A DNA stretch of 64,000 nucleotides from a bacterium (GCA_030647115.1 JAUSJZ010000010.1:4540-68539); one strand, 5' to 3'; shown: positions 4,754 to 32,312, counted from the stretch's first letter. The notes: generated by a model from the sequence alone, not told the origin. A program made the numbers and translations.

Positions 4754-4774
4754 ACAATCACCCTGACCACTTTT

Positions 4775-5110
4775 GGTGACTGATTACGTGGCTGCGCAAG
4801 CAGAGGAAAGTCCGGGCTTCAGTGTCATCGTTGTTGCTAACGGCAACCCACCGCAAGGTGCGAGCTAGTGCCACAGAAACGATACCTCCGGCGAAGCTCC
4901 AGAACGAAAGTATCAGGAGCGGAGCCGGAAAGGGTGAAATAGTGCGGTAAGAGCGCACTGGTTTGCTAGGTGACTAGCGAATCGAGGTAAACCTAACGGG
5001 AAGCAAGGTGGGTTGGACTGTAGACACATCAAAAGGTTGACACACCGTGTCTGTAGAACCCACCGCTTAGATAGATCACGTAATAAACAAAACCCGGCTT
5101 ATCGGTCACC
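4775..5110 (+). ncRNA. rnpB: RNase P RNA, bacterial type A
   Basis: It contains the universal GAGGAAAGTCCGGGCT (P4 5' strand), AAGGGTGAAAtaGTGCGGTAAGAGCGCAC (P10-P12 region) and ACAAAACCCGGCTTATCGGTCACC (P4 3' strand plus P1 3' strand, pairing with GGTGACTGAT at 4775-4784). Length is about 335 nt. The antisense ORF 4758-4958 is spurious. Confidence 0.85.
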
Positions 5111-5134
5111 AGGGGTGGTTTTTTAGTTAAACTA

Positions 5135-6464: not shown

Positions 6465-6538
6465 TGGCTCGGGGACCTGGATTCGAACCAGGATTCACGG
6501 CTTCAAAGGCCGCTGTCCTACCATTAGACGATCTCCGA
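6465..6538 (-). tRNA. tRNA-Gln (anticodon UUG), CCA encoded
   Basis: Minus-strand cloverleaf: acceptor TCGGAGA/TCCCCGA (one A:C mismatch at pair 5:68); D arm GTCT/AGAC-like; anticodon stem GCGGC/GCCGT with loop CTTTGAA (U33, anticodon TTG, A37); T arm CCTGG-TTCGAAT-CCAGG; discriminator G; CCA. The 3' half closely resembles E. coli tRNA-Gln (GGTTCGAATCCAGG..CC.AGCCA), including the weak U1:A72 pair and G73. Confidence 0.85.
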
Positions 6539-15811: not shown

Positions 15812-15881
15812 AAACGATATCCTCTTGACAAGCTATACCAACCTGCCAGAATAAGGACAGATTAGAAGTTAACATGCGTAT

Positions 15882-16124
15882 ATGGCTTACGAGTATACCA
15901 ACTCAAAAGGACAGCTCTACCACCTCCACTCGAAGGAGGTAACCTTGAAGGGTAACCTTCAGATGAAGATCTTCTACTTTAAGAAGGAGGTCGACGAAGA
16001 GTTCGCGATTGATGAACTACCGGCCGACCGAGAGGTCGTCGAGAATGAGCGCACCGGTTTACCGCTCGTGCGACGTAAGCGAACCGAAGAAGAGGCTAAG
16101 GAAGAGGCTAAAGAAAAAGGCTAG
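15882..16124 (+). CDS. hypothetical small protein with highly charged C-terminus
   Basis: 80 aa with no clear SD. It is followed 25 nt later by a very strong intrinsic terminator, which supports a transcribed unit ending here. Confidence 0.35.
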   Translation: MAYEYTNSKGQLYHLHSKEVTLKGNLQMKIFYFKKEVDEEFAIDELPADREVVENERTGLPLVRRKRTEEEAKEEAKEKG

Positions 16125-16149
16125 GCAAGACTAGCTCTTAAGTAGGAAA

Positions 16150-16180
16150 AGACCCCATCGCTGGGGTCTTTTCTTGTTTT
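16150..16180 (+). terminator. rho-independent terminator (AGACCCCA-tcgc-TGGGGTCT + TTTCTTGTTTT)
   Basis: A perfect 8-bp GC-rich stem with a 4-nt loop and a U-rich tail. It ends the central-carbon operon before the surface locus. Confidence 0.8.
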
Positions 16181-16211
16181 ATTGGGTCTTACTTGCTACA
16201 TTCTCTTGTAG

Positions 16212-17675
16212 ATGAAACGCAGCGACCTTTTCTTTACAGCCTTATTAATACCACTGGACTACATGGCGGTGGTAGTCAGTTTTATGTTGGCTTATCTTAT
16301 TAGAGTCAGTTATCCAACCATTGTACCAATCCACTGGTTGGGCCAGGTAGCCGACACGGTTAGCTACGAACCTGACCTGCAGCTTTATCCATTAATAGCC
16401 TATGTACCGGCTATTCTGTGGTTAGTAGCCGCCATGGTCGTTACTTTTATCTTTACCGGTCTGTATCGTGCCCGTCGCTTCACTAATACCTCGGAGGCTT
16501 CATCACAGATATTACGCTCCGTCGCTTATACCTTTTTACTACTGCTGCTGGTTACCTTCGTTAGGGGCAATACAATTTTACCCCGTCTGGTAATTCTATA
16601 TGCCATGGTTTTAACGGTCTTCGCGTTGGTATTAACTCGGTGGCTGGTCCATTTTATGAGAGTGATACTACAACGATACGGGGTTGGAGTGGTACGCGTC
16701 GCCGTGCTCGGTAAGAGGCGCAACGCCGATCGGGCAATCAGCTTCATTAACAGTTTTCGGGGTGAAGGATACCGCTTTGCCAGACAGTATTCATTGGGGG
16801 AACGAGAGAAGCTGTTGCGAGCGATCGACCGACGTAAATTTGATGAGCTAATTATCGCCGTTAATCACATTGATGAGCAGGAGCTGATTGATATTAGAGA
16901 GGCCTGTATTGAAAAACGGGTCGGTTTTGCTTTCGTGCCGAGCATGTTAGAGGTGCTGACTTCAAGAGTAGAGGTTAAAGACATGCGGGGATTTACGATG
17001 ATTGAGGTGCCACTGACCCCGTTGGAGGGTTGGGGCTATATCGTCAAAAGAATCGTTGATCTCACAGGTTCGATAGTGGGTCTTATTATACTTAGCCCGT
17101 TACTAATACTTATTGCTCTAGCCATCTATATCGATAGTCCCGGCCCAATCTTTTTTAAACACAAACGACTGGGTCAGCAACTAGAGGAGTTTTCGCTGTT
17201 CAAGTTTAGAACCATGAAGACCGAATTTTGTGACGGTGAGGGTTATGACAAGAAAAGGGCTCGGGCTCACTTTGAGGAGCTGCTCAACAATAATAAACAT
17301 TTGAAGGAAGAATGGCAGACCTATCAGAAGCTGAAACACGACCCCAGAGTGACTAGATTAGGGACCATATTACGTAAGACCAGTCTTGATGAATTGCCAC
17401 AGCTCTTTAACGCTCTAAGAGGAGATGTGAGCCTGGTTGGTCCCAGACCGATAGTCCGTAATGAGCTAGAAAAATATGGTCAGATGCGGCACCGTCTGTC
17501 GGCTATTAAGCCCGGTATAACCGGTCTGTGGCAGGTGAGTGGGCGTAATGATACTACCTATGAAGAGCGGGTGAGGTTAGATATGGTTTACGTGGAGAAT
17601 TGGAGTCTCTGGTTAGACGTTGTTATTATGTTAAAGACAATCAACACACTACTATTTAGAAAAGGTGCCTACTAA
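16212..17675 (+). CDS. undecaprenyl-phosphate sugar phosphotransferase (WbaP/CpsE-like bacterial sugar transferase)
   Basis: 487 aa. It has N-terminal TM helices and a C-terminal sugar-transferase domain ([41 protein letters not shown] ... VGPRP ... GLWQVSGR). Confidence 0.85.
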
Positions 17676-18735
17676 ACGCCTGCGAGTCGCCCTCGTTAAG
17701 GACTGGCTAACTAGCTACGGTGGATCTGAAGAACAGTTGTGGCAGCTACACTTGCTCTACCCCGATGCTCCTATTTACACCTCTGTCTACGACGAGCAAC
17801 GGTTGCCGCAGTTTAAAAAAGCCACTATTAAAGAGATGTCCCTTTCGGGCTGGTTTAGAAAGGGCAGACGTTTCGAAAAATTGGCACTTATCTTACCCCT
17901 ATATTTTTCCACATTGCACCTGTCAGATTATGACCTGGTGATTTCGATCACATCGGGTTTTGCTAAAGCCGTGACAACCAACTCCCAAACCGTTCACCTG
18001 TGTATCTGTAACACTCCCATTCGGTTCGCGTGGGGTTTTGGTACCGATAAGAGGGGACTATTGGGTAGCATTCTGGCGCCCCTGTTCCGCTGGTTTGATA
18101 AACGGTCTGCTCAAAAAGTTGATTACTTTCTGGCCAATTCAGTCAATGTCGCCCGCCGCATCAAACAGGTCTACCAGCGCGATAGTGAGGTGCTGTACCC
18201 GCCGGTTCACGTCGAGAATTTTATTGATCTCAAACGCAGCCGCCAACCCGAAGGGCTGATAACGATTGGCCGTTTAGTTTATTACAAAAGAATAGATCTC
18301 ATTATTGCCGCCTGTAATCAACTACAACTACCGTTGACCGTTATTGGCACCGGCCCCGAAGAGAGTCGCTTACAAAAGCTGGCCGGACCGACAGTCAAGT
18401 TATTAGGTTTTTGTGACACCGCGAAAATTAAACAAGAACTGACTAAAGCCAAAGCCTTCGTCTTTGCCGCCGAAGAAGATTTTGGTATCGCACCGGTAGA
18501 AGCGATGGCAGCCGGGTGTCCGGTGATCGCCCTTAAAAAGGGAGGCTCGCTCGAGACGGTTACTAGTAAGACCGGCACTTTTTTTAACGAACAGACGGTA
18601 GACAGTCTGGTAGAGGCGATACAGCACCTGCCAGCAGACTGGGATATTGTCTCAATGAGAAAACAGGCCAATAAGTTTTCAGTGGAAAAATTTATTACCG
18701 GTGTTACCTCCTTTATTGATCGTTTTACACGATAA
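17665..18735 (+). CDS. glycosyltransferase family 4 (GT-B fold)
   Basis: 356 aa with a GTG start. The N-terminus is VALVKDWLTSYGGSE. The C-terminal GT1/GT4 EX7E-type region is FAAEEDFGIAPVEAMAAGCPVIA. Confidence 0.8.
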   Translation: MPTKRLRVALVKDWLTSYGGSEEQLWQLHLLYPDAPIYTSVYDEQRLPQFKKATIKEMSLSGWFRKGRRFEKLALILPLYFSTLHLSDYDLVISITSGFAKAVTTNSQTVHLCICNTPIRFAWGFGTDKRGLLGSILAPLFRWFDKRSAQKVDYFLANSVNVARRIKQVYQRDSEVLYPPVHVENFIDLKRSRQPEGLITIGRLVYYKRIDLIIAACNQLQLPLTVIGTGPEESRLQKLAGPTVKLLGFCDTAKIKQELTKAKAFVFAAEEDFGIAPVEAMAAGCPVIALKKGGSLETVTSKTGTFFNEQTVDSLVEAIQHLPADWDIVSMRKQANKFSVEKFITGVTSFIDRFTR

Positions 18736-18761
18736 TTTATGACTGTGGCATAATAGAGGCA

Positions 18762-20285
18762 ATGAGAGAGAGGGCAAAGTTGTTTGCGTTGGTGTTGGTC
18801 ACACTGACCTTATTGTTGATGGCTCCAAAATGTCTGGCGTGGAGTGAAAGTAATAATTTCATTCTAGATGATGCCAGCATCGCCCCTAATTTTACCGGAG
18901 ATTCTGGTAACCAATCGATAACGGCCACGGTCAGCCCCTTACAAAATTCACAGAGTGCCAGCAATACTCTAAACGAAGCCGGAGTAACCATTAAGGCGGT
19001 CCTACCGACTCCTTTGGCACCGTCACTACAAGCAGTTGATGGTGTCACGAAAGTTCTTAACGTTAAAATTTCACTGGGTGATAACGATCGAGCCAGTCGG
19101 GTACAGCTAAGATTAGTCTCCACCGACGGTACTTATACGGGTTACTTCATACCAAACAGTCAGGCTGTCAGTGTTAGTGATAGCTGGGTAGGGTATAACA
19201 GCTGGGGTGAAGAGTGGCGTCAGCTAAAGGAACTAGACGTTAACAAACAATATCGAGCTCAAGTCAGGGTTAAGACCGATGATTTCAGTGTCTCTGAATT
19301 TAGCGCTTTCAGTGAGGTAGTTACTCCAAACGGTATTTTGACCGCAGAGACCGGCACTCCCACCAGCAGTGTTCTGCCTAAATCATGGCAAACGAGTCGG
19401 GCTAAAAGTCTCTTGACAGCCATCGCGACGGCCCTACTACCCTTAACCGCTGCTGCCCTAATAATTCAGGCGGGAGCGGCTATCTCTATTATTGGTGAAT
19501 TACTACTAAACCTACTGGGGCGTCTTCTGGCCTCACTGCTATCGCTAGCACAATTGGTTGCCCTTGCCGGTCGAAAAAAAATCTTTGGCCAGATAATGGA
19601 CAGTAAAACCAAAAAACCGGTGCCTGGAGCACAGGTCTCTTTATTACGCCCCGATACCAGGCGAGTCCTTGACATGCAAACGACCGACCAATACGGGCGA
19701 TACTATTTTATTGCCAACAATAAACAACCGTATCTGCTGACCATTAATAAAGAAGGCTTTGATTATTGGGAGCAGGTGCTGCACTACAAGATTAACCGTC
19801 GTATCTATCTGGGTGAAAGTCTAGAGAACGACGTACCGCTACTGAAAGATAAATTTAAAAAAACGAAGTTGATGAGGGGCCTAGAGACTATCAGGGTTCC
19901 ACTACTGTTAATCGGCTCCATCTCGTGGTTGGGTGTATTTATCCAACAACAGTCTGTTCTGACCTGGGGTCTGGGAGTTTATTACGTACTGGCTTGGGTG
20001 TTAGAAATATACATCAGAATACAACCGCGACCTTTTGGGTTAGTCGTGGCTGCCACGACCAATGAGCCTCTGTCTTTAGTGGTAGTGCGCATTTACAACA
20101 ATGTTCATAAGTTGATTGAGACGGTCATCGGTGATGAACAGGGTCGCTTTAAGACCCTACTGCAGCCCGGCCGGTACAACTTTACGTTTGCTAAACAAGG
20201 TTATAAACCGAATGAATTGAACGGAATTATCATTGACCGGCATCTGGCAAGCTTGAAAGTGGATGTCACCATGTATCGTGTATAA
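18762..20285 (+). CDS. signal-peptide/polytopic membrane protein with two carboxypeptidase-regulatory-like (CarboxypepD_reg) beta-sandwich domains
   Basis: 507 aa. Signal peptide is MRERAKLFALVLVTLTLLLMAPKCLAWS. A ~200-aa extracytoplasmic region precedes hydrophobic blocks. Two segments (GQIMDSKTKKPVPGAQVSLL..DQYGRYYF and VVAATTNEPLSLVVVRIY..DEQGRFK..GRYNFTFAKQGYK) resemble carboxypeptidase regulatory-like domains. Confidence 0.55.
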   Translation: MRERAKLFALVLVTLTLLLMAPKCLAWSESNNFILDDASIAPNFTGDSGNQSITATVSPLQNSQSASNTLNEAGVTIKAVLPTPLAPSLQAVDGVTKVLNVKISLGDNDRASRVQLRLVSTDGTYTGYFIPNSQAVSVSDSWVGYNSWGEEWRQLKELDVNKQYRAQVRVKTDDFSVSEFSAFSEVVTPNGILTAETGTPTSSVLPKSWQTSRAKSLLTAIATALLPLTAAALIIQAGAAISIIGELLLNLLGRLLASLLSLAQLVALAGRKKIFGQIMDSKTKKPVPGAQVSLLRPDTRRVLDMQTTDQYGRYYFIANNKQPYLLTINKEGFDYWEQVLHYKINRRIYLGESLENDVPLLKDKFKKTKLMRGLETIRVPLLLIGSISWLGVFIQQQSVLTWGLGVYYVLAWVLEIYIRIQPRPFGLVVAATTNEPLSLVVVRIYNNVHKLIETVIGDEQGRFKTLLQPGRYNFTFAKQGYKPNELNGIIIDRHLASLKVDVTMYRV

Positions 20286-20295
20286 TTAAGTTATC

Positions 20296-23200
20296 TTGAA
20301 GGGGCAAAGTCGACTAACATCACATTTGCGCCGTTTCTTGACCATATTTTTAGGTGTGGTGGTTTTGATGTTGTCGTCACAAACAACGTCTAGGGCAGCG
20401 ACGATCAACCAATTTACTTTTCAGGCGCGTATCTTGAGTAAAGACCGCACCAGTACTCCTACTGGCAATTACAACTTCCGTTTTAGCATCTTTAACGTCG
20501 AAACGGGTGGTTCACAGTTATGGCAGGAAACTACCAATGGGGTCACGGTCAATTACGGTAAGTTTACGGTCATTCTGGGAAATTCCACCAGCCTCAATTC
20601 AGTTAACTTTAATAGTGAGGCCCTATACCTGCTGGTGGAGTTTGATTCCGATAATAACGGCAGTTTTGACCAGTCATTTGATAATCGACTGGCTTTGACG
20701 GCCGTACCGGTGGCCCAGAACGCAAAAAAGCTTGGTGGTAAGAGTGGGTCTCAATTTGCCACTTTGACCGAGAACGAGACTGTCAGTGGCAGTTATCTAT
20801 TTGAAAACAACCTTACCGTACAGGGCACTACCGTTTTGGCGGCCAGTCTTAACGGTATGGTTAAAGCCTCATCTGGCACTATTCAAAATGCTATTGCCGG
20901 AGCCGACTATCAGGCACCAATTAGCTGGGGCGATGGCTTAACGGTAGATAATAACACCGCCGCTTTAGATTATAACTCCACCAACCTTAGAATAACCTCC
21001 GAGAAAATAAATACCATTCAAGATATTGCAACGGGTGCCACACCCCAATTTGCTCGAATAGGAGTTGGCCAGGCGGCCAATAACAGTCTGATCTCTCTAC
21101 CGGCGTCCACCGGAGCCACTGGTGGGTTTGACTTGGGGGGTGATGTTAACCTCTATCGTTCGGCCAGTAATACCCTCAAGACCGATGACAGTTTGGTGAT
21201 AGGCGGCACCTCGGCTGACTTATTGGCCCAAGGAGATTTACGACTCTACGATACCGACTCCTCAAACTACGTCGCTTTACAGTCTCCAACGTCCGTGTCA
21301 TCTAACATCGTCTGGACCTTACCGGGCACCGACAGTAGCGGTTGTCTCTCTAGTAATGGTTCCGGTACTATCTCCATCGCCGCTTGTTTGAGTGCTGCAG
21401 CTCCAACTGATGCTCAATATCTAACCCTGGCCGCAAATGGTACCCTGTCAGCCGAACGGATACTGCTAGGTACCAGCAATCAAATTATTTTGGCCGATAC
21501 CGGAGCCAACGGTAATCTAACGCTGTCACTGCCCCAAGACATTGCCACCAGTTCGGCCGTACAGTTTGGTTCGCTGGGGTTGGGTACGGCGGCCGGTTCG
21601 GCTAAATTAACTTTCACTGCCGCGACCACCGCCGCCGGAGGCATTGATTTTGGAACAGACGTTACGCTCTATCGCTCGGCCGCCAATCGACTCAAAACCG
21701 ATGACGTCTTAATAGTAGATACCGGAGCCAGTGTAACCGACATTACCAGTTTTGACGCAGGCACCGTAATGGTAGTGGCCAGTACCGGTCATTCTACTAT
21801 CTCGACCTATTCGACCAGAAACACTGACGGTAGCGCTATCGGTGGGATGCGGTTTTATGGCAATAATGATGCGGCCTCACCGTCAGTAATCCAGTACGGT
21901 ATCGTTAGCGGTTCAATAGTTGATAGTGCCGCTGGCGACGAGACCGGTAAGGTATCCATTTACACTAGAAATGATACGGCAAGCAGCAACGATTGGGGTC
22001 GCGTTGATTTTGATGAAAACGGAAAAATCTGGTTAGGGGCGGTCAGCGCTTCTGGTACTGGCACCAATGATGTTAATCTCTATCGTTCGACTACCGATAC
22101 CTTAAAGACTGATGATGCTTTCATCGCTGCCAACATCACTTCAGGCGGGTTGACATCGGGTCGTGTTACCTACGCCGGAGCCTCTGGTCTATTACAAGAC
22201 TCGGCCAGTATGACTTTCGACACCACTAACGGTCTGATTCTAGCGGCCGGTTCAGCCTCAGCACTAAAGCTATCTTCAACGGCCGGTACCGCTGTCGGTG
22301 GTTTACTCTTGGGTACCGATACCACTCTCTATCGCTCGACCACGGATACTTTAAAGACTGATGATAGTCTAATTGTCGCCGGTGCCTCACTAGATTTATT
22401 AACCCAGGGTGATGTGCGGCTCTATGACAGTGATTCTTCTAATTACGTCGCCTTCCAGAGCCCGGCCACAGTCGGTACTAATATCATCTGGACTTTGCCA
22501 AGTACCGACAGTTCGGGTTGTCTATCGAGTAATGGCTCGGCGACGCTCTCTTGGGCAGCCTGTAGTGGTTCGGGGAGTCTCGACGATGCCTATAATAATG
22601 GAAGTACAATTACCGTCGATGCTGGGGCAATTGTCTTGAACGACTCCGGCACCACTACAACCTTGTTCGATATTAATCAGTCGGGGGCGATTACCGGTAC
22701 GGCACCACTTATCGATGTCGATTACTCAACCTCAATCAACAACGCCGCTGACTACGCGAGTCTAAGCCTAACCGGAGTCACCAATGCCGGCGCCGGGTTC
22801 TCAATTGGTATTGATCTGGCTGGTTTTGATTACGGTATTCAATCGGCTCTGCCGTACGTATTATCTTCCTCTAAAGCAGCTGATAGCATCGACTTTCTCT
22901 CTAAGAAACCCGACAGTTCGGGTGGTACCCAGTTTCTCTTCGACACCAGTGCCACGGTTGCTACCGCTTCGTTATTCGCGGTGAAGAATAACGGTACCGG
23001 CAGTATCTTTGTCATTAATGGCAATGGTAGAGTAGGTATTGGCACTGAAGTAGCCGGGGATAAATTGGATGTTCAGGGGGGTAATATTCGTAACAGTGCC
23101 TTAGCCGGGGTGGGTAACCGGGCCGTTTATTCTGATGCCAATGGGGTACTAACCAACAGCGCCTCCGATCAAAATATAAAAACCAATATCGTATCGTTGG

Positions 23201-23913
23201 CTTCCAGTATGAGCGCCCTCGATACGATCTCTCAATTAAGGGGAGTCTATTACAATTGGCTCGATACTGATAGATTGGGTAGCCAACGCGAGATCGGCTT
23301 TGTTGCTCAAGAGGTTCAACCGTATCTACCGGAATTAATTGGATCTAATCATGACGGCACCTTGTCGCTCGATTATCCCAAACTAACGGCCGTCTTGACC
23401 GAAGCCGTAAAACAGCTTAATACCGAAGTCAAAGCTCTTCAGGGTACCACTATGACAGCAGAGGAGATTATCAGTCCGACCAGTAAAGATTTAATCTTGA
23501 GACCAAGTACGGGTAAGATACTCGCCCAGGGCTCCATTGATGTGGCGGGCACTTTAGTGGTGAGCGGGGCGACAACCCTCGCTGATACCCTGACGAAAGA
23601 TCTGGCGGTAGCCGGTACTTTTATGGTCAAGGGTAGCGGTACTGCCGACTACGAATTAGACGGTTCTGAAGACGATACCAATTTGATTGGCGGTACTGAA
23701 AAAGCTGCCATTGCCAACGGCCAGACTGAGACTAACATCAGTATTCCATCACAGGGCACCAATAATTATTCGGTTATTGCCACCTGGCTGAACGACCCCG
23801 GGCAATCATTCTGGACAACCGTAACCGACTCGGAGCATTTCAAGGTCAGGGTGAGTAACCCGGTCGCCGCCGATTCTACCTTCCGTTATCTACTAATCAA
23901 TAACGAACAGTAG
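20296..23913 (+). CDS. secreted tail-fibre-like repeat protein with C-terminal Peptidase S74 intramolecular-chaperone (auto-cleaving) domain
   Basis: 1205 aa with a TTG start. The signal peptide is (MKGQSRLTSHLRRFLTIFLGVVVLMLSSQTTSRA). LYRS..L.TDD modules recur. The fibre motif is GRVGIGTEVAGDKLDVQGG. The C-terminal domain is SASDQNIKTNI..LRGVYYNWLD..EIGFVAQEVQPYLPELI..LSLDYPKLTAVLTEAVKQL. Confidence 0.7.
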   Translation: MKGQSRLTSHLRRFLTIFLGVVVLMLSSQTTSRAATINQFTFQARILSKDRTSTPTGNYNFRFSIFNVETGGSQLWQETTNGVTVNYGKFTVILGNSTSLNSVNFNSEALYLLVEFDSDNNGSFDQSFDNRLALTAVPVAQNAKKLGGKSGSQFATLTENETVSGSYLFENNLTVQGTTVLAASLNGMVKASSGTIQNAIAGADYQAPISWGDGLTVDNNTAALDYNSTNLRITSEKINTIQDIATGATPQFARIGVGQAANNSLISLPASTGATGGFDLGGDVNLYRSASNTLKTDDSLVIGGTSADLLAQGDLRLYDTDSSNYVALQSPTSVSSNIVWTLPGTDSSGCLSSNGSGTISIAACLSAAAPTDAQYLTLAANGTLSAERILLGTSNQIILADTGANGNLTLSLPQDIATSSAVQFGSLGLGTAAGSAKLTFTAATTAAGGIDFGTDVTLYRSAANRLKTDDVLIVDTGASVTDITSFDAGTVMVVASTGHSTISTYSTRNTDGSAIGGMRFYGNNDAASPSVIQYGIVSGSIVDSAAGDETGKVSIYTRNDTASSNDWGRVDFDENGKIWLGAVSASGTGTNDVNLYRSTTDTLKTDDAFIAANITSGGLTSGRVTYAGASGLLQDSASMTFDTTNGLILAAGSASALKLSSTAGTAVGGLLLGTDTTLYRSTTDTLKTDDSLIVAGASLDLLTQGDVRLYDSDSSNYVAFQSPATVGTNIIWTLPSTDSSGCLSSNGSATLSWAACSGSGSLDDAYNNGSTITVDAGAIVLNDSGTTTTLFDINQSGAITGTAPLIDVDYSTSINNAADYASLSLTGVTNAGAGFSIGIDLAGFDYGIQSALPYVLSSSKAADSIDFLSKKPDSSGGTQFLFDTSATVATASLFAVKNNGTGSIFVINGNGRVGIGTEVAGDKLDVQGGNIRNSALAGVGNRAVYSDANGVLTNSASDQNIKTNIVSLASSMSALDTISQLRGVYYNWLDTDRLGSQREIGFVAQEVQPYLPELIGSNHDGTLSLDYPKLTAVLTEAVKQLNTEVKALQGTTMTAEEIISPTSKDLILRPSTGKILAQGSIDVAGTLVVSGATTLADTLTKDLAVAGTFMVKGSGTADYELDGSEDDTNLIGGTEKAAIANGQTETNISIPSQGTNNYSVIATWLNDPGQSFWTTVTDSEHFKVRVSNPVAADSTFRYLLINNEQ

Positions 23914-23918
23914 CGACC

Positions 23919-23937
23919 ACAGTAGCTAACTGCTACT
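23919..23937 (+). terminator. weak hairpin (CAGTAGC-taact-GCTACTG) between fibre gene and GT2
   Basis: Perfect 7-bp stem immediately after the fibre gene stop. No strong U tract follows, so this may be an attenuator or RNA-stability element. Confidence 0.25.
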
Positions 23938-23945
23938 GTTGAAAC

Positions 23946-24914
23946 GTGGAATATCTAATACCGCACTACGGTTCTTTGAAATTGGTCAAGAAAGCGGTAC
24001 GCAGTATCAGACGCTGTGACGGTAACGCCCGCATTTTAATTGGAGACGATACCAGACTATTGCAGACGTCAGACTTTACGACCAAGGTAAATATTTTTAA
24101 AGGTCCGCAACGTGGATTTGCGGCTAACGTTAATAACCTGTTAAGGAATGCCCAATACGAGTGGGTAGTTATCATCAATAATGACGTTGAACTATTTAGT
24201 GACTGGCGGGTAATTATAGAGAATAATCTTGAAGAACTAGACCCAAAAATATACTGCCTGGCCAGCAGTCTCTACCGACCCGACGGGCGAGTAGATAGTT
24301 TTGGCGATAATTACTCTTGGTATGGTCAAGGCTACAATCGTTTTCATCTACTCTCACCGAAGAATAAGATGTACAATCGAGTGCGAGTGTTGGGAGCAAC
24401 CGGGGCTCTGATGGTTGTCAGACGTAGCGTTCTACTGCGCTATGGTGGTTTTTCGGAGATATTGGGTAGTTACTGCGAGGATACGGCCTTTCATCTCTTA
24501 GCCAATAATGATGGTTGGTGCAGTTATTTCATCCCGGACGCGCGGGCTTTTCACACCGGTTCCGCTACCTTCAACCTCGATCAAAAACTGCAGCTGTCGG
24601 CTCGTAATAGCCTTTTGGTCATCCGGTCGCTATTTAAGGGCAAGTTGAGGCAACATCTGTTAAGAAGGGCTTATCACTACTGGAAGTTAAAGGCTCTGTT
24701 CAGTCGTAAATTTCGATTGCAGATTTTAGAAGGCATTAGAGCCGGTTTGTCAGAAATACCCTATCGAGCAAAACGTAAAATTGATCATTGGCCGGATGGG
24801 TTATATTTTGAGGGTTTTGCCACCTCTACCTGGCGTCTGACAAAGCAGCTATTGGGTAATCGTGTAATCGCTAAGTTGGGGCGTCTATTCACCCTAAACG
24901 ACATTGATAGTTGA
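23946..24914 (+). CDS. glycosyltransferase family 2 (GT-A fold)
   Basis: 322 aa with a GTG start. GT2 N-terminal region (IPHYGS..LVKKAVRSI..ILIGDD ... VVIINNDVEL) with a DXD-type motif. Confidence 0.65.
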   Translation: MEYLIPHYGSLKLVKKAVRSIRRCDGNARILIGDDTRLLQTSDFTTKVNIFKGPQRGFAANVNNLLRNAQYEWVVIINNDVELFSDWRVIIENNLEELDPKIYCLASSLYRPDGRVDSFGDNYSWYGQGYNRFHLLSPKNKMYNRVRVLGATGALMVVRRSVLLRYGGFSEILGSYCEDTAFHLLANNDGWCSYFIPDARAFHTGSATFNLDQKLQLSARNSLLVIRSLFKGKLRQHLLRRAYHYWKLKALFSRKFRLQILEGIRAGLSEIPYRAKRKIDHWPDGLYFEGFATSTWRLTKQLLGNRVIAKLGRLFTLNDIDS

Positions 24915-24943
24915 GTAATTTAGTGCTACTATAAAGAAGTTAG

Positions 24944-26917
<1,974 letters not shown>

Positions 26918-31256: not shown

Positions 31257-32312
31257 ATGAATGACACCAATACAGAGGAACCTCCGATACGCCGCTCCCT
31301 CTTACAGAAACTTGGTCGTCTTAATCGCTTGGGCAAGCGGTTATTGCCAGCAAAATATTTTGCAATAAATGGTTCTATTTTAGGTAAACCGATATTCTGG
31401 GCACCAACATTACTGGTTGCAGCGGCTGTTTTTGGTAATTTATCTGAAAGCAAAACCCACGCTCAGACTATTTCCGATCTGATTGGGTTAGACCCCAAGA
31501 CCAAGCTGACAACCATGTCAGCTATCGATCAGTACACTCCTTTCGTTGAGGAGACTCGCGATGCCGATGTAGTGGTCACAGCTGGAATCATGCCGTCAGA
31601 CCTGGTTTTGACCAAACCCGGTTTAGCTCGCACCAATGTCAGACCGACAGAACAACCCAAACAACCGGAAAAGAGGGAGAAACCGGTTTATCACACTGTT
31701 GCTGCCGGTGAAACGCTATCAGAGATAGCCTCGAGCTATGGGGTTAGAGTAGCTTCCATTATGGTTGATAACGCTACCTTGACCAATAACGATCACCTTA
31801 AAATTGGTGATCAAATTAAAATACCCGCTGCTGACTATTCAGACGACTATTTAAAGAAAAATACGAAAACAGTGGTTGCCCAGGCTAATACCGGTCGTAA
31901 GGTAAGCGTGCGCGAAACCTCGGCTGCCAGATATGAAGATTCTGGTATGCCCGTTTTCGCTCGACCAGCCGGCTCAAGAGGAAAGAACGGTTATCACAAC
32001 TGGGCCATAGATATATCACCTGACGGTGGTAGAACTGTTATGGCCTCGGCTGATGGGGTCGTCGTTGAGGTAGCCGACGGCTGGGACGGCGGTTATGGTA
32101 AGAAGATCGTGGTTGATCACGGTAGTGGCTGGGAGACGCTGTATGCCCATCTAGACAGCATTTCAGTTAAAGCAGGGCAGAAAGTAGCTCAAGGACAGTC
32201 GATGGGCGTTATGGGGGCAACTGGCCGTACTTATCCTATCGGAGCGGTCCACCTTCACTTTGAGATTAGAAAAAATGGTTCTCGGTTGAATCCGATTAAC
32301 TACGTCGACTAA
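31257..32312 (+). CDS. LysM domain-containing M23 family metallopeptidase
   Basis: 351 aa with an N-terminal hydrophobic anchor. LysM is YHTVAAGETLSEIASSYGV..IKIP. The M23 motifs are VVDHGSGWETLYAHL and GAVHLHFEI. Confidence 0.8.
   Translation: MNDTNTEEPPIRRSLLQKLGRLNRLGKRLLPAKYFAINGSILGKPIFWAPTLLVAAAVFGNLSESKTHAQTISDLIGLDPKTKLTTMSAIDQYTPFVEETRDADVVVTAGIMPSDLVLTKPGLARTNVRPTEQPKQPEKREKPVYHTVAAGETLSEIASSYGVRVASIMVDNATLTNNDHLKIGDQIKIPAADYSDDYLKKNTKTVVAQANTGRKVSVRETSAARYEDSGMPVFARPAGSRGKNGYHNWAIDISPDGGRTVMASADGVVVEVADGWDGGYGKKIVVDHGSGWETLYAHLDSISVKAGQKVAQGQSMGVMGATGRTYPIGAVHLHFEIRKNGSRLNPINYVD

Follow-up and report, generated by a model that had tools for sequence, protein, structure and literature searches.

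A long fibre protein is encoded on the plus strand of a 64,000-nucleotide stretch of bacterial DNA (GCA_030647115.1 JAUSJZ010000010.1:4540-68539), which we refer to as the window. The gene (20296..23913, stop codon at 23911-23913) specifies 1205 amino acids (aa) including its TTG start, and all features of the fibre given below lie on the same strand. We think it probable that the product is a chromosomally inherited, Sec-secreted, trimeric surface fibre of a Saccharibacteria-type bacterium, that it follows the plan of the Bdellovibrio MAT fibres and that it is matured by cleavage at a Peptidase_S74 chaperone domain. What the analysis shows are the domains present, the catalytic residues, the conserved gene order on the chromosome, how rare the extension after the chaperone is, and the fold of the knob in which this extension ends. 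Bacterial cells were already known to carry S74 fibres (Bdellovibrio MAT, 2024, PMC10769870). New here are the occurrence of a MAT-like S74 fibre in bacteria of the Saccharibacteria type and the rare neck and knob that follow its chaperone. A first-pass annotation of the window had placed a tail-fibre-like protein at 20296-23913, and the open reading frame (ORF) is located exactly there.

The S74 chaperone spans aa 957 to about 1053 (23164..23454) and was recognized by Pfam as well as by profile matches to the Protein Data Bank (PDB). PF13884 matches aa 957-1014 with an E value of 6.1e-13 and 49.3 bits (cutoff, 22) over profile positions 1-56 of 58, so that the C-terminal chaperone named in the first-pass annotation has a significant profile match. 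The catalytic residues are Ser957 (23164-23166) and Lys962 (23179-23181), both in the motif NSA-S957-D-Q-N-I-K962. The window sequence NSASDQNIK aligns to NVSSDRRIK of the tip of phage S16 gp37 (PDB 6f45), which puts a serine at the aligned catalytic position, as had been proposed. A profile made from eight family members matched 6f45 (E = 3.7e-9) and 8jov (E = 5e-8) and, more weakly, MyRF (7dc3, E = 0.007) and the GA-1 appendage. Both Ser957 and Lys962 are invariant in the aligned family members (8/8), and the Ser-x4-Lys spacing is kept in 120/120 other S74 proteins, a sample that is biased to short proteins (each listed one has at most 226 aa). The domain is 72 to 74% identical between loci whose GyrB proteins are 76 to 78% identical (measured in four of the seven syntenic loci described below plus L001), which indicates that it is under strong purifying selection.

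Three precedents bear on the position of the cut. The T5 protein pb1 is cleaved at Thr1263-Ser1264, which unmasks its receptor site and releases a 133-aa chaperone (PMC4690869). Bd3182 of Bdellovibrio self-cleaves at S782, an S782A mutant does not, and the structure ends at A781 (PMC10769870). The solved GA-1 fragment starts with SDERHK. As all three are cut N-terminal to the catalytic serine, the predicted scissile bond of the window fibre is A956↓S957, and by analogy this cut would free 249 residues. The first-pass annotation had put the cleavage at S|D, which is one residue too far. The phage chaperones of this kind (K1F endosialidase, T5 pb1, S16 gp37 in 6f45, and GA-1 gp12) share homology with the window fibre over aa about 940-1060, together with the Ser-Lys dyad five residues apart, a central helix and a place directly after the fibre tip. 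In the window fibre the helix (about aa 1027-1050) is tentative, as it was seen in a low-confidence model only.

At the other end of the protein, a conserved β-rich N-terminal domain (aa 35-150; 20398..20745) is presumed to be the cell-proximal anchor. It matches the NCBIfam profile NF053851 (Bdello_MAT_N) with an E value of 2e-10 and 40.7 bits, below the curated cutoff of 60 bits, and the alignment covers profile positions 3-79 of 162, about half of the model. The profile also matches 19/19 homolog N-termini (best E = 2.3e-11), and the E values imply that all of these are below the curated cutoff. From these scores the domain can be considered a probable distant homolog of the Bdellovibrio MAT N-terminal domain and not a member of the Bdellovibrio subfamily. 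MAT fibres have a signal peptide, a β-rich N-terminal domain of about 130 aa that is thought to lie on the producer surface, and a long trimeric shaft. Thirteen of the 21 Bdellovibrio members end in an S74 domain, for which self-cleavage was shown experimentally, and the rest have other tips (PMC10769870). The first-pass annotation had therefore gone too far in calling it unusual for a cellular genome to encode a secreted S74 fibre; the unusual feature is the extension past the S74 domain.

The likeness to the MAT fibres (Bd3182; Caulton et al. 2024) goes further than single domains. Both are cellular proteins in which a signal peptide (predicted in the window fibre) is followed by a β-rich N-terminal domain, both are long fibres (about 1000 aa) with a C-terminal S74 domain carrying an S-D-x-x-x-K dyad, both combine a constant N-terminal domain with swapped C-terminal ends, and the producers of both live attached to other bacteria. 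Apart from the N-terminal domain scoring under the subfamily cutoff, the differences are that the window shaft is made of LYRS..LKTDD modules, that there is one copy here versus 21 members in B. bacteriovorus HD100, that the producer belongs to the Patescibacteria, and that 249 aa follow the cut here versus 141 aa in Bd3182, the MAT S74 members being without neck and knob. The MAT-like protein list of PMC10769870 contains no Patescibacteria. A link of S74 or tail-fibre-like proteins to Patescibacteria was not found in the literature, the coverage of which was incomplete, so that absence is not proven.

Among the relatives of the window fibre, one N-terminal domain is combined with varied C-terminal ends, which are S74 plus knob, Peptidase_G2, or none that was recognized. 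Judged from these domain matches, self-cleaving chaperones of two or more kinds (S74 and Peptidase_G2) seem to be in use in the fibre family. The Peptidase_G2 case is P0008 (L008 7001-9913), which has a MAT-like N-terminal domain and a weak match to the autoproteolytic Peptidase_G2 chaperone replacing S74; its gene sits at a different locus, adjoining a Wzy_C gene.

Secretion of the fibre is supported by its N terminus. Residues 1-34 (20296..20397) form a predicted signal peptide, with a basic n-region, the hydrophobic core FLTIFLGVVVLML and a predicted processing site SRA↓AT, and the hydropathy peak is at aa 14-26. In every homolog compared, a hydrophobic N terminus with an AxA↓A-type site is found just ahead of the conserved domain. 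A Sec-type signal peptide read from a TTG start is thus supported, the call being based on hydropathy, homolog N termini and start-codon conservation. TTG 20296 is the first start-capable codon past the upstream stop in the ORF listing, and a second candidate, TTG 20326 (aa 11), is equally conserved. Both are invariant in three genomes, namely that of the window and those of its closest relatives (L006 and L007), the gene calls of P0002 and P0003 begin at the TTG matching 20326, and either codon yields a classical signal peptide. A well-spaced Shine-Dalgarno sequence was not found at TTG 20296 or TTG 20326.

The public record has a different start. The NCBI protein P0001 (1181 aa), named 'tail fiber domain-containing protein', is 100% identical to the window fibre minus the first 24 residues. 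It begins at ATG 20368 (aa 25), a start that would remove the hydrophobic core and that reads GTT or CTG in the two closest relatives. The first-pass annotation had tied the signal peptide to the TTG start and had warned that a true start at a downstream ATG would remove it. This objection fails, because ATG 20368 is not conserved and both upstream TTGs are invariant, and the homolog N termini are signal-peptide-like. The NCBI start is probably a start-codon misannotation, which could affect orthologs too.

The location of the gene shows that it belongs to the cell. Upstream are genes for a Bac_transf priming sugar transferase (16212-17675), a glycosyltransferase of family GT4 (17665-18735) and a membrane protein of 507 aa that carries two CarboxypepD_reg domains (18762-20285). 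Downstream are a GT2-family glycosyltransferase (23946..24914) and then gyrB (24965-26917). The first four are on the plus strand and were assigned by Pfam. The block of Bac_transf, GT4, membrane protein, fibre and GT2 is kept in seven other loci (L002-L007 and L009), with gyrB next wherever the contig extends that far, and the fibre is a single-copy gene at this fixed locus. The fibres of the seven syntenic loci are 33 to 86% identical, and the orthologs range from 921 to 2088 aa. The GC content is even across the fibre gene, without an island. The window further contains uvrA, glycolysis and pentose-phosphate genes, gyrA, infB, obg and rpoB, and its cellular origin is confirmed by ordinary housekeeping RNAs, namely a bacterial class A RNase P RNA (4773-5116, plus strand, 193.6 bits) and a tRNA-Gln(UUG) (6465-6538, minus strand). 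The single match among species-representative genomes is an uncultured Candidatus Saccharibacteria metagenome-assembled genome, and one related contig is labelled Patescibacteria; the source is a Saccharibacteria-type (Patescibacteria) bacterium.

That the fibre could instead be a phage or prophage tail fibre, or a recent capture of one, is suggested by its NCBI name, by PHROG tail-protein matches (phrog_8215 reaching into the shaft, aa 339-1051), by the PDB match to a long tail fibre tip and by the 557 matching records in a search of 50,697 phage records. We consider this highly improbable. The matches listed (25 of the 557) all fall within aa 867-1067 and stop at 1061-1067, none covers more than 17% of the fibre, and aa 36-865 and aa 1068-1205 had no match in the 50,697 records, leaving the remaining 85% of the protein unmatched. 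The locus lies between glycolysis and pentose-phosphate genes and gyrBA across genomes whose GyrB proteins are about 77% identical. No phage structural or lysis genes were found near the fibre, its neighbours being metabolic, glycosyltransferase and gyrase genes. A Sec signal peptide is also needless for virion proteins, which are assembled in the cytoplasm, and a GC island is lacking. Prophage origin was rejected on the metabolic neighbours, the synteny and the restriction of phage matches to the S74 region. Synteny together with the confinement of these matches to aa 867-1067 indicates a vertically inherited cellular gene that has only the chaperone in common with phages. Unlike phage S74 fibres, the window protein has a signal peptide and would fold outside the cell.

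The unusual part of the fibre is the extension after the S74 domain. In solved S74 chaperones the last residues correspond to aa about 1055-1060 of the window fibre, and phage chaperones end their polypeptide there (133 aa in T5), whereas 152 more residues follow here, in agreement with the roughly 150 aa noted in the first-pass annotation. The length from the catalytic serine to the C terminus is 249 aa in the window fibre, 133 in T5 pb1, 141 in Bd3182 and 86 to 157 (median, 101; n = 120) in the sampled S74 proteins. Neither an assembly error nor a frameshift accounts for the extension, which is in frame and is conserved at the fibre locus in every ortholog examined, from independent assemblies. 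When 1.84 billion cluster representatives were searched exhaustively with HMMER, only six had the full extension at E ≤ 1e-30, which means that it is rare and lineage restricted. The position of the chaperone at the extreme C terminus (about 95 to 155 aa counted from the serine) is an architectural habit of the S74 family that lies outside the Pfam definition, and MyRF breaks it too.

The extension consists of two parts. The neck (aa 1054-1125; 23455..23670) is a short shaft-like segment, putatively of β-solenoid type, followed by the acidic linker DGSEDD. Positions 4-60 of the extension profile match as multiple short-period repeats in YadA-head/bactofilin-type proteins, and the neck profile also matches two shaft segments of the same fibre. 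The knob (aa 1126-1205; 23671..23910) is a C-terminal β-sandwich with the signature TW..DPGQ..W / FRYLLI. AlphaFold2, run on a 17-sequence alignment, modelled it with six strands at a predicted local distance difference test score (pLDDT) above 90, a mean of 86.4 and a predicted TM-score of 0.71. Among solved structures, Foldseek placed it nearest to the Pam1 tailspike (7eea, E = 0.02) and the Sf6 tailspike (2vbm, E = 0.045; 24 to 27% identity), with the R2 pyocin fibre and the Klebsiella K1 lyase as further neighbours. Among predicted viral structures the Minorna tailspike was best (E = 2.3e-4), and the named entries were nearly all phage fibres or spikes. No Pfam family covers the window knob. 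As the Foldseek scores are modest as well, the model suggests a resemblance to tailspike C-terminal caps at the level of the fold only.

Like the tailspike caps (Sf6 2vbm, Pam1 7eea and K1 lyase 7w1d/K1-lyase_C), the knob is the last domain of what would be a trimeric fibre or spike, and its model superimposes on these caps with a query-normalized TM-score of 0.55 to 0.61 and 17 to 27% identity, the root-mean-square deviation (rmsd) being 2.1 to 3.2 Å for Pam1 and Sf6. The scores are marginal against solved structures (E = 0.02 to 0.1) and modest against predicted viral ones (best, 2.3e-4). The caps also differ in coming directly after a β-helix and in being retained on the mature protein, whereas the knob follows a self-cleaving chaperone. 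Two other assignments were dropped. PF24146 (K1-lyase_C) gave weak matches in 2/17 aligned knob relatives (best E = 0.027) and none for the window knob, so that an identity with K1-lyase_C at the sequence level was rejected. An H-type lectin, considered from the strand pattern, was rejected as well (match probability to Helix pomatia agglutinin 0.18 to 0.25, rmsd about 13 Å).

The knob recurs at the C terminus of unrelated proteins, among them a pectate-lyase-like protein, small membrane-anchored proteins and the S74 protein P0080. In P0087 (138 aa) it stands alone behind an N-terminal membrane anchor. In P0089 (407 aa) it is C-terminal and is preceded by a long region rich in Pro, Val and Gln and by a hydrophobic segment resembling a transmembrane helix. 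These two proteins suggest that the knob is a general extracellular module. P0080 (aa 1980-2266) is an S74 protein outside the family whose post-chaperone tail has a related knob and then a proline-rich tail. P0019 (aa 1248-1614), also an S74 protein outside the family, continues for 367 aa past the chaperone, and the end of this tail matches K1-lyase_C below threshold. As P0019, like P0080, carries such a tail, the combination of S74 with a terminal β-sandwich is uncommon yet recurring, and an architecture in which further domains follow the S74 chaperone may have been overlooked although it recurs.

Taken together with the known systems, these parts allow a mechanism to be proposed. The TTG-initiated signal peptide would direct Sec export and be removed at SRA↓AT, after which the N-terminal domain of about 115 aa would hold the fibre on the producer envelope. 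Candidate anchor partners are the co-conserved membrane protein and a glycan made by the three neighbouring transferases. The fast-evolving modular shaft would point outward. The S74 chaperone would trimerize three chains and nucleate folding of the fibre, and the Ser957/Lys962 dyad would cut A956-S957 once the trimer is correct. The products would be a mature fibre (about 920 aa), its tip now exposed by the cut, and a shed trimeric fragment of 249 aa composed of the chaperone, the shaft-like neck and the tailspike-type knob. Neck and knob would then be an enlarged assembly module, an extra trimerization cap for a fibre that folds outside the cell. Trimer formation, self-cleavage, anchoring and binding to the host are inferred from the MAT and T5 precedents and the epibiotic way of life, and the part assigned to neck and knob is a proposal as well. 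Since the group lives epibiotically, the fibre most likely contacts the host bacterium.

Several points weigh against this reading. Trimerization and cleavage are predictions for the window fibre, and the AlphaFold2 monomer of aa 896-1205 (8 sequences) was poor, with a pLDDT of 41. The score of the N-terminal domain below the MAT cutoff suggests that the kinship is only distant. The adjacency of the transferases and the membrane protein is weak evidence of a functional link, because synteny in these compact genomes extends to housekeeping genes. Host adhesion is argued only from analogy and lifestyle. The knob is 44 to 61% identical at a GyrB identity of 76 to 78%, similar to the neighbouring enzymes, which argues against a hypervariable receptor tip. 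A conserved, autonomously folding knob is also odd for a part that is discarded, and the Bdellovibrio S74 fibres and phage fibres fold without one.

An alternative is that the C-terminal fragment is itself functional, as a trimeric mini-fibre, free or only loosely attached, whose target would be a glycan or some other component of the host or of the producer. The knob folds autonomously and with confidence according to AlphaFold2, its nearest structural relatives are distal domains of receptor-binding proteins, and it recurs at the C terminus of unrelated secreted or membrane-anchored proteins. In addition, the neck resembles shaft sequence, neck and knob are kept in every ortholog examined, and β-sandwich-type post-chaperone tails occur in two unrelated S74 proteins, P0080 and P0019 (in the latter as the sub-threshold K1-lyase_C match). 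On the other side, binding of a ligand by the modelled knob is purely putative. Tailspike C-terminal β-sandwiches such as that of Sf6 are generally seen as assembly or stability caps and not as binding sites, and released S74 chaperones are not known to act after they have been cut off. A functional fragment is doubtful on this balance, and we are slightly more doubtful of its fuller form, in which autocleavage is a maturation switch that yields two working parts, a tip-unmasked anchored fibre and an autonomous mini-fibre. The released mini-fibre could bind a glycan of the host or of the producer itself, prime the contact site or act as a decoy. MyRF offers a parallel, as S74 cleavage splits it into two functional halves. 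In this eukaryotic S74 protein (the weak match 7dc3, E = 0.007) the domain is not C-terminal either, and cleavage parts two substantial pieces, but downstream is a transmembrane anchor and upstream a transcription factor, and there is no similarity to the fibre beyond S74.

A further question is whether the S74 domain cleaves at all in this family. If it were non-cleaving, or cleaved only conditionally, neck and knob would stay as the distal tip, with the knob as receptor-binding end. This would account for the conservation of the extension, the fold and terminal position of the knob match tailspike distal domains, and β-sandwich domains form the tip of Bdellovibrio non-S74 MAT fibres (PMC10769870). 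We nevertheless find it unlikely, as the Ser/Lys dyad is invariant and few parts of the fibre are as well conserved as the S74 domain. The S74 domains described in PMC10769870 and PMC4690869 all self-cleave after folding, and if the chaperone were never cut off, the tip upstream of it would stay masked, as T5 illustrates (PMC4690869). A cleaved fibre whose neck and knob assist assembly is the reading that we prefer.

Between the two conserved ends lies a modular shaft (aa 151-900; 20746..22995), which evolves fast and varies in length. At a GyrB identity of 76 to 78% it is 28 to 54% identical and only partly alignable, compared to 49 to 61% for the N-terminal domain and 43 to 46% for the neck. 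Two long repeats of about 100 aa (copy 1, aa 263-365, 21082..21390; copy 2, aa 654-757, 22255..22566) are identical at 67/101 residues (66%), with an alignment score of z = 41 versus shuffles. The internal repeats described in the first-pass annotation are thus real, although the identity given there (about 70%) was slightly high, the two DNA segments that it named having 159 matches over 240 to 242 nucleotides (about 66%). The annotation was right that LYRS..LKTDD modules recur four times, at aa 286, 458, 595 and 678 (pairwise module z = 6 to 15); at the DNA level they are a four-copy repeat family of 75 nucleotides. At least two copies are found in 55/67 homologs (up to 11), compared to about 0.015 per shuffled protein, and the motif is a signature of the wider fibre family. 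The GIGT..KLDVQG-type motif is likewise present, as VGIGTEVAGDKLDV at aa 913-926 (23032..23073). It occurs in 14/67 homologs (21 copies), compared to about 0.004 per shuffled protein, and is a generic fibre-shaft motif.

The least conserved stretch relative to P0002 and P0003 is a variable insertion module at aa about 470-590 (21703..22065), which is 72% identical to P0002 and 43% identical to P0003, with gaps of 9 to 33 aa. Module replacement is thus seen even among close relatives, and P0004 and P0005 contain a module that looks similar. The only cysteines of the fibre are Cys350, Cys364, Cys742 and Cys756 (21343-21345, 21385-21387, 22519-22521 and 22561-22563). They form pairs 14 residues apart, Cys350/Cys364 in the first long repeat and Cys742/Cys756 in the second. 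This spacing suggests one disulfide per long repeat, which would fit an extracellular protein. An extracellular location is indicated by the signal-peptide features and by the presence of only these four cysteines, one pair per repeat.

Alternatively, the protein could be a structural part of the envelope, similar to a surface layer, that takes no part in recognizing the host and to which the neighbouring transferases might attach sugars. In favour of this are its single gene at a fixed place, the adjoining genes for a priming sugar transferase, for GT4 and GT2 enzymes and for a membrane protein, and a high content of Ser and Thr (23.6%). However, the fibre architecture and the MAT-type N-terminal domain point to a projecting filament and not to a lattice, and the sequence and length of the shaft change quickly, as expected of an exposed element that is antigenic or takes part in interactions. 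Nor is there an excess of N-x-S/T sequons in the fibre (19 observed versus about 18.6 expected). We therefore regard an envelope component as very unlikely and keep to a projecting, host-contacting fibre.

Cultivated Saccharibacteria, and probably many other Patescibacteria, live on host bacteria, and their host recognition is largely unexplained beyond type IV pili and a few unnamed adhesins. The fibre is a testable candidate for host contact, being single copy and fixed in position, with conserved ends and a fast-evolving shaft, and distantly akin to the prey-handling fibres of Bdellovibrio. It would extend the MAT-type fibre plan to a phylum outside the list of the original study. The probable start-codon error in the public record hides the signal peptide and may be systematic. 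With extra folded domains on an S74 chaperone, one may also ask if such fragments are in every case thrown away. If the fragment were to work as a mini-fibre, it would be the first bacterial S74 chaperone fragment that is functional after cleavage, in a lineage whose host-recognition machinery is little known.

Some further observations concern the surroundings of the gene. The 507-aa membrane protein is directly upstream of the fibre in every syntenic locus, diverges fast (37 to 41% identity where GyrB is about 77% identical), and is a candidate envelope partner of the fibre. It has an N-terminal signal or anchor, a hydrophobic cluster at about aa 216-270, and its two CarboxypepD_reg domains are transthyretin-like. 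Between the 2-hydroxyacid dehydrogenase and Bac_transf genes of five related loci there is a small gene (67 to 82 aa, no Pfam match; L002 3537-3755, L005 3466-3714, L006 1571-1792, L007 1526-1747 and L009 2558-2761), the window counterpart of which would fall in the gap 15812-16211. After infB, in the window as in those syntenic loci that are long enough (L002-L004), a protein with LysM and Peptidase_M23 domains is encoded (31257-32312), which is probably a cell-wall hydrolase. A scan of 16000-25200 for promoters and terminators gave 13 promoter-like sites, versus 11.6 ± 4.0 in shuffles, and none at the fibre start. The DNA from the upstream stop to the second TTG (20278-20326) is more conserved than the flanking coding sequence and holds a TATAAT overlapping the stop codon as well as an invariant GAAGGGG; it was not flagged by the consensus promoter scan and may be a promoter or 5' leader element.

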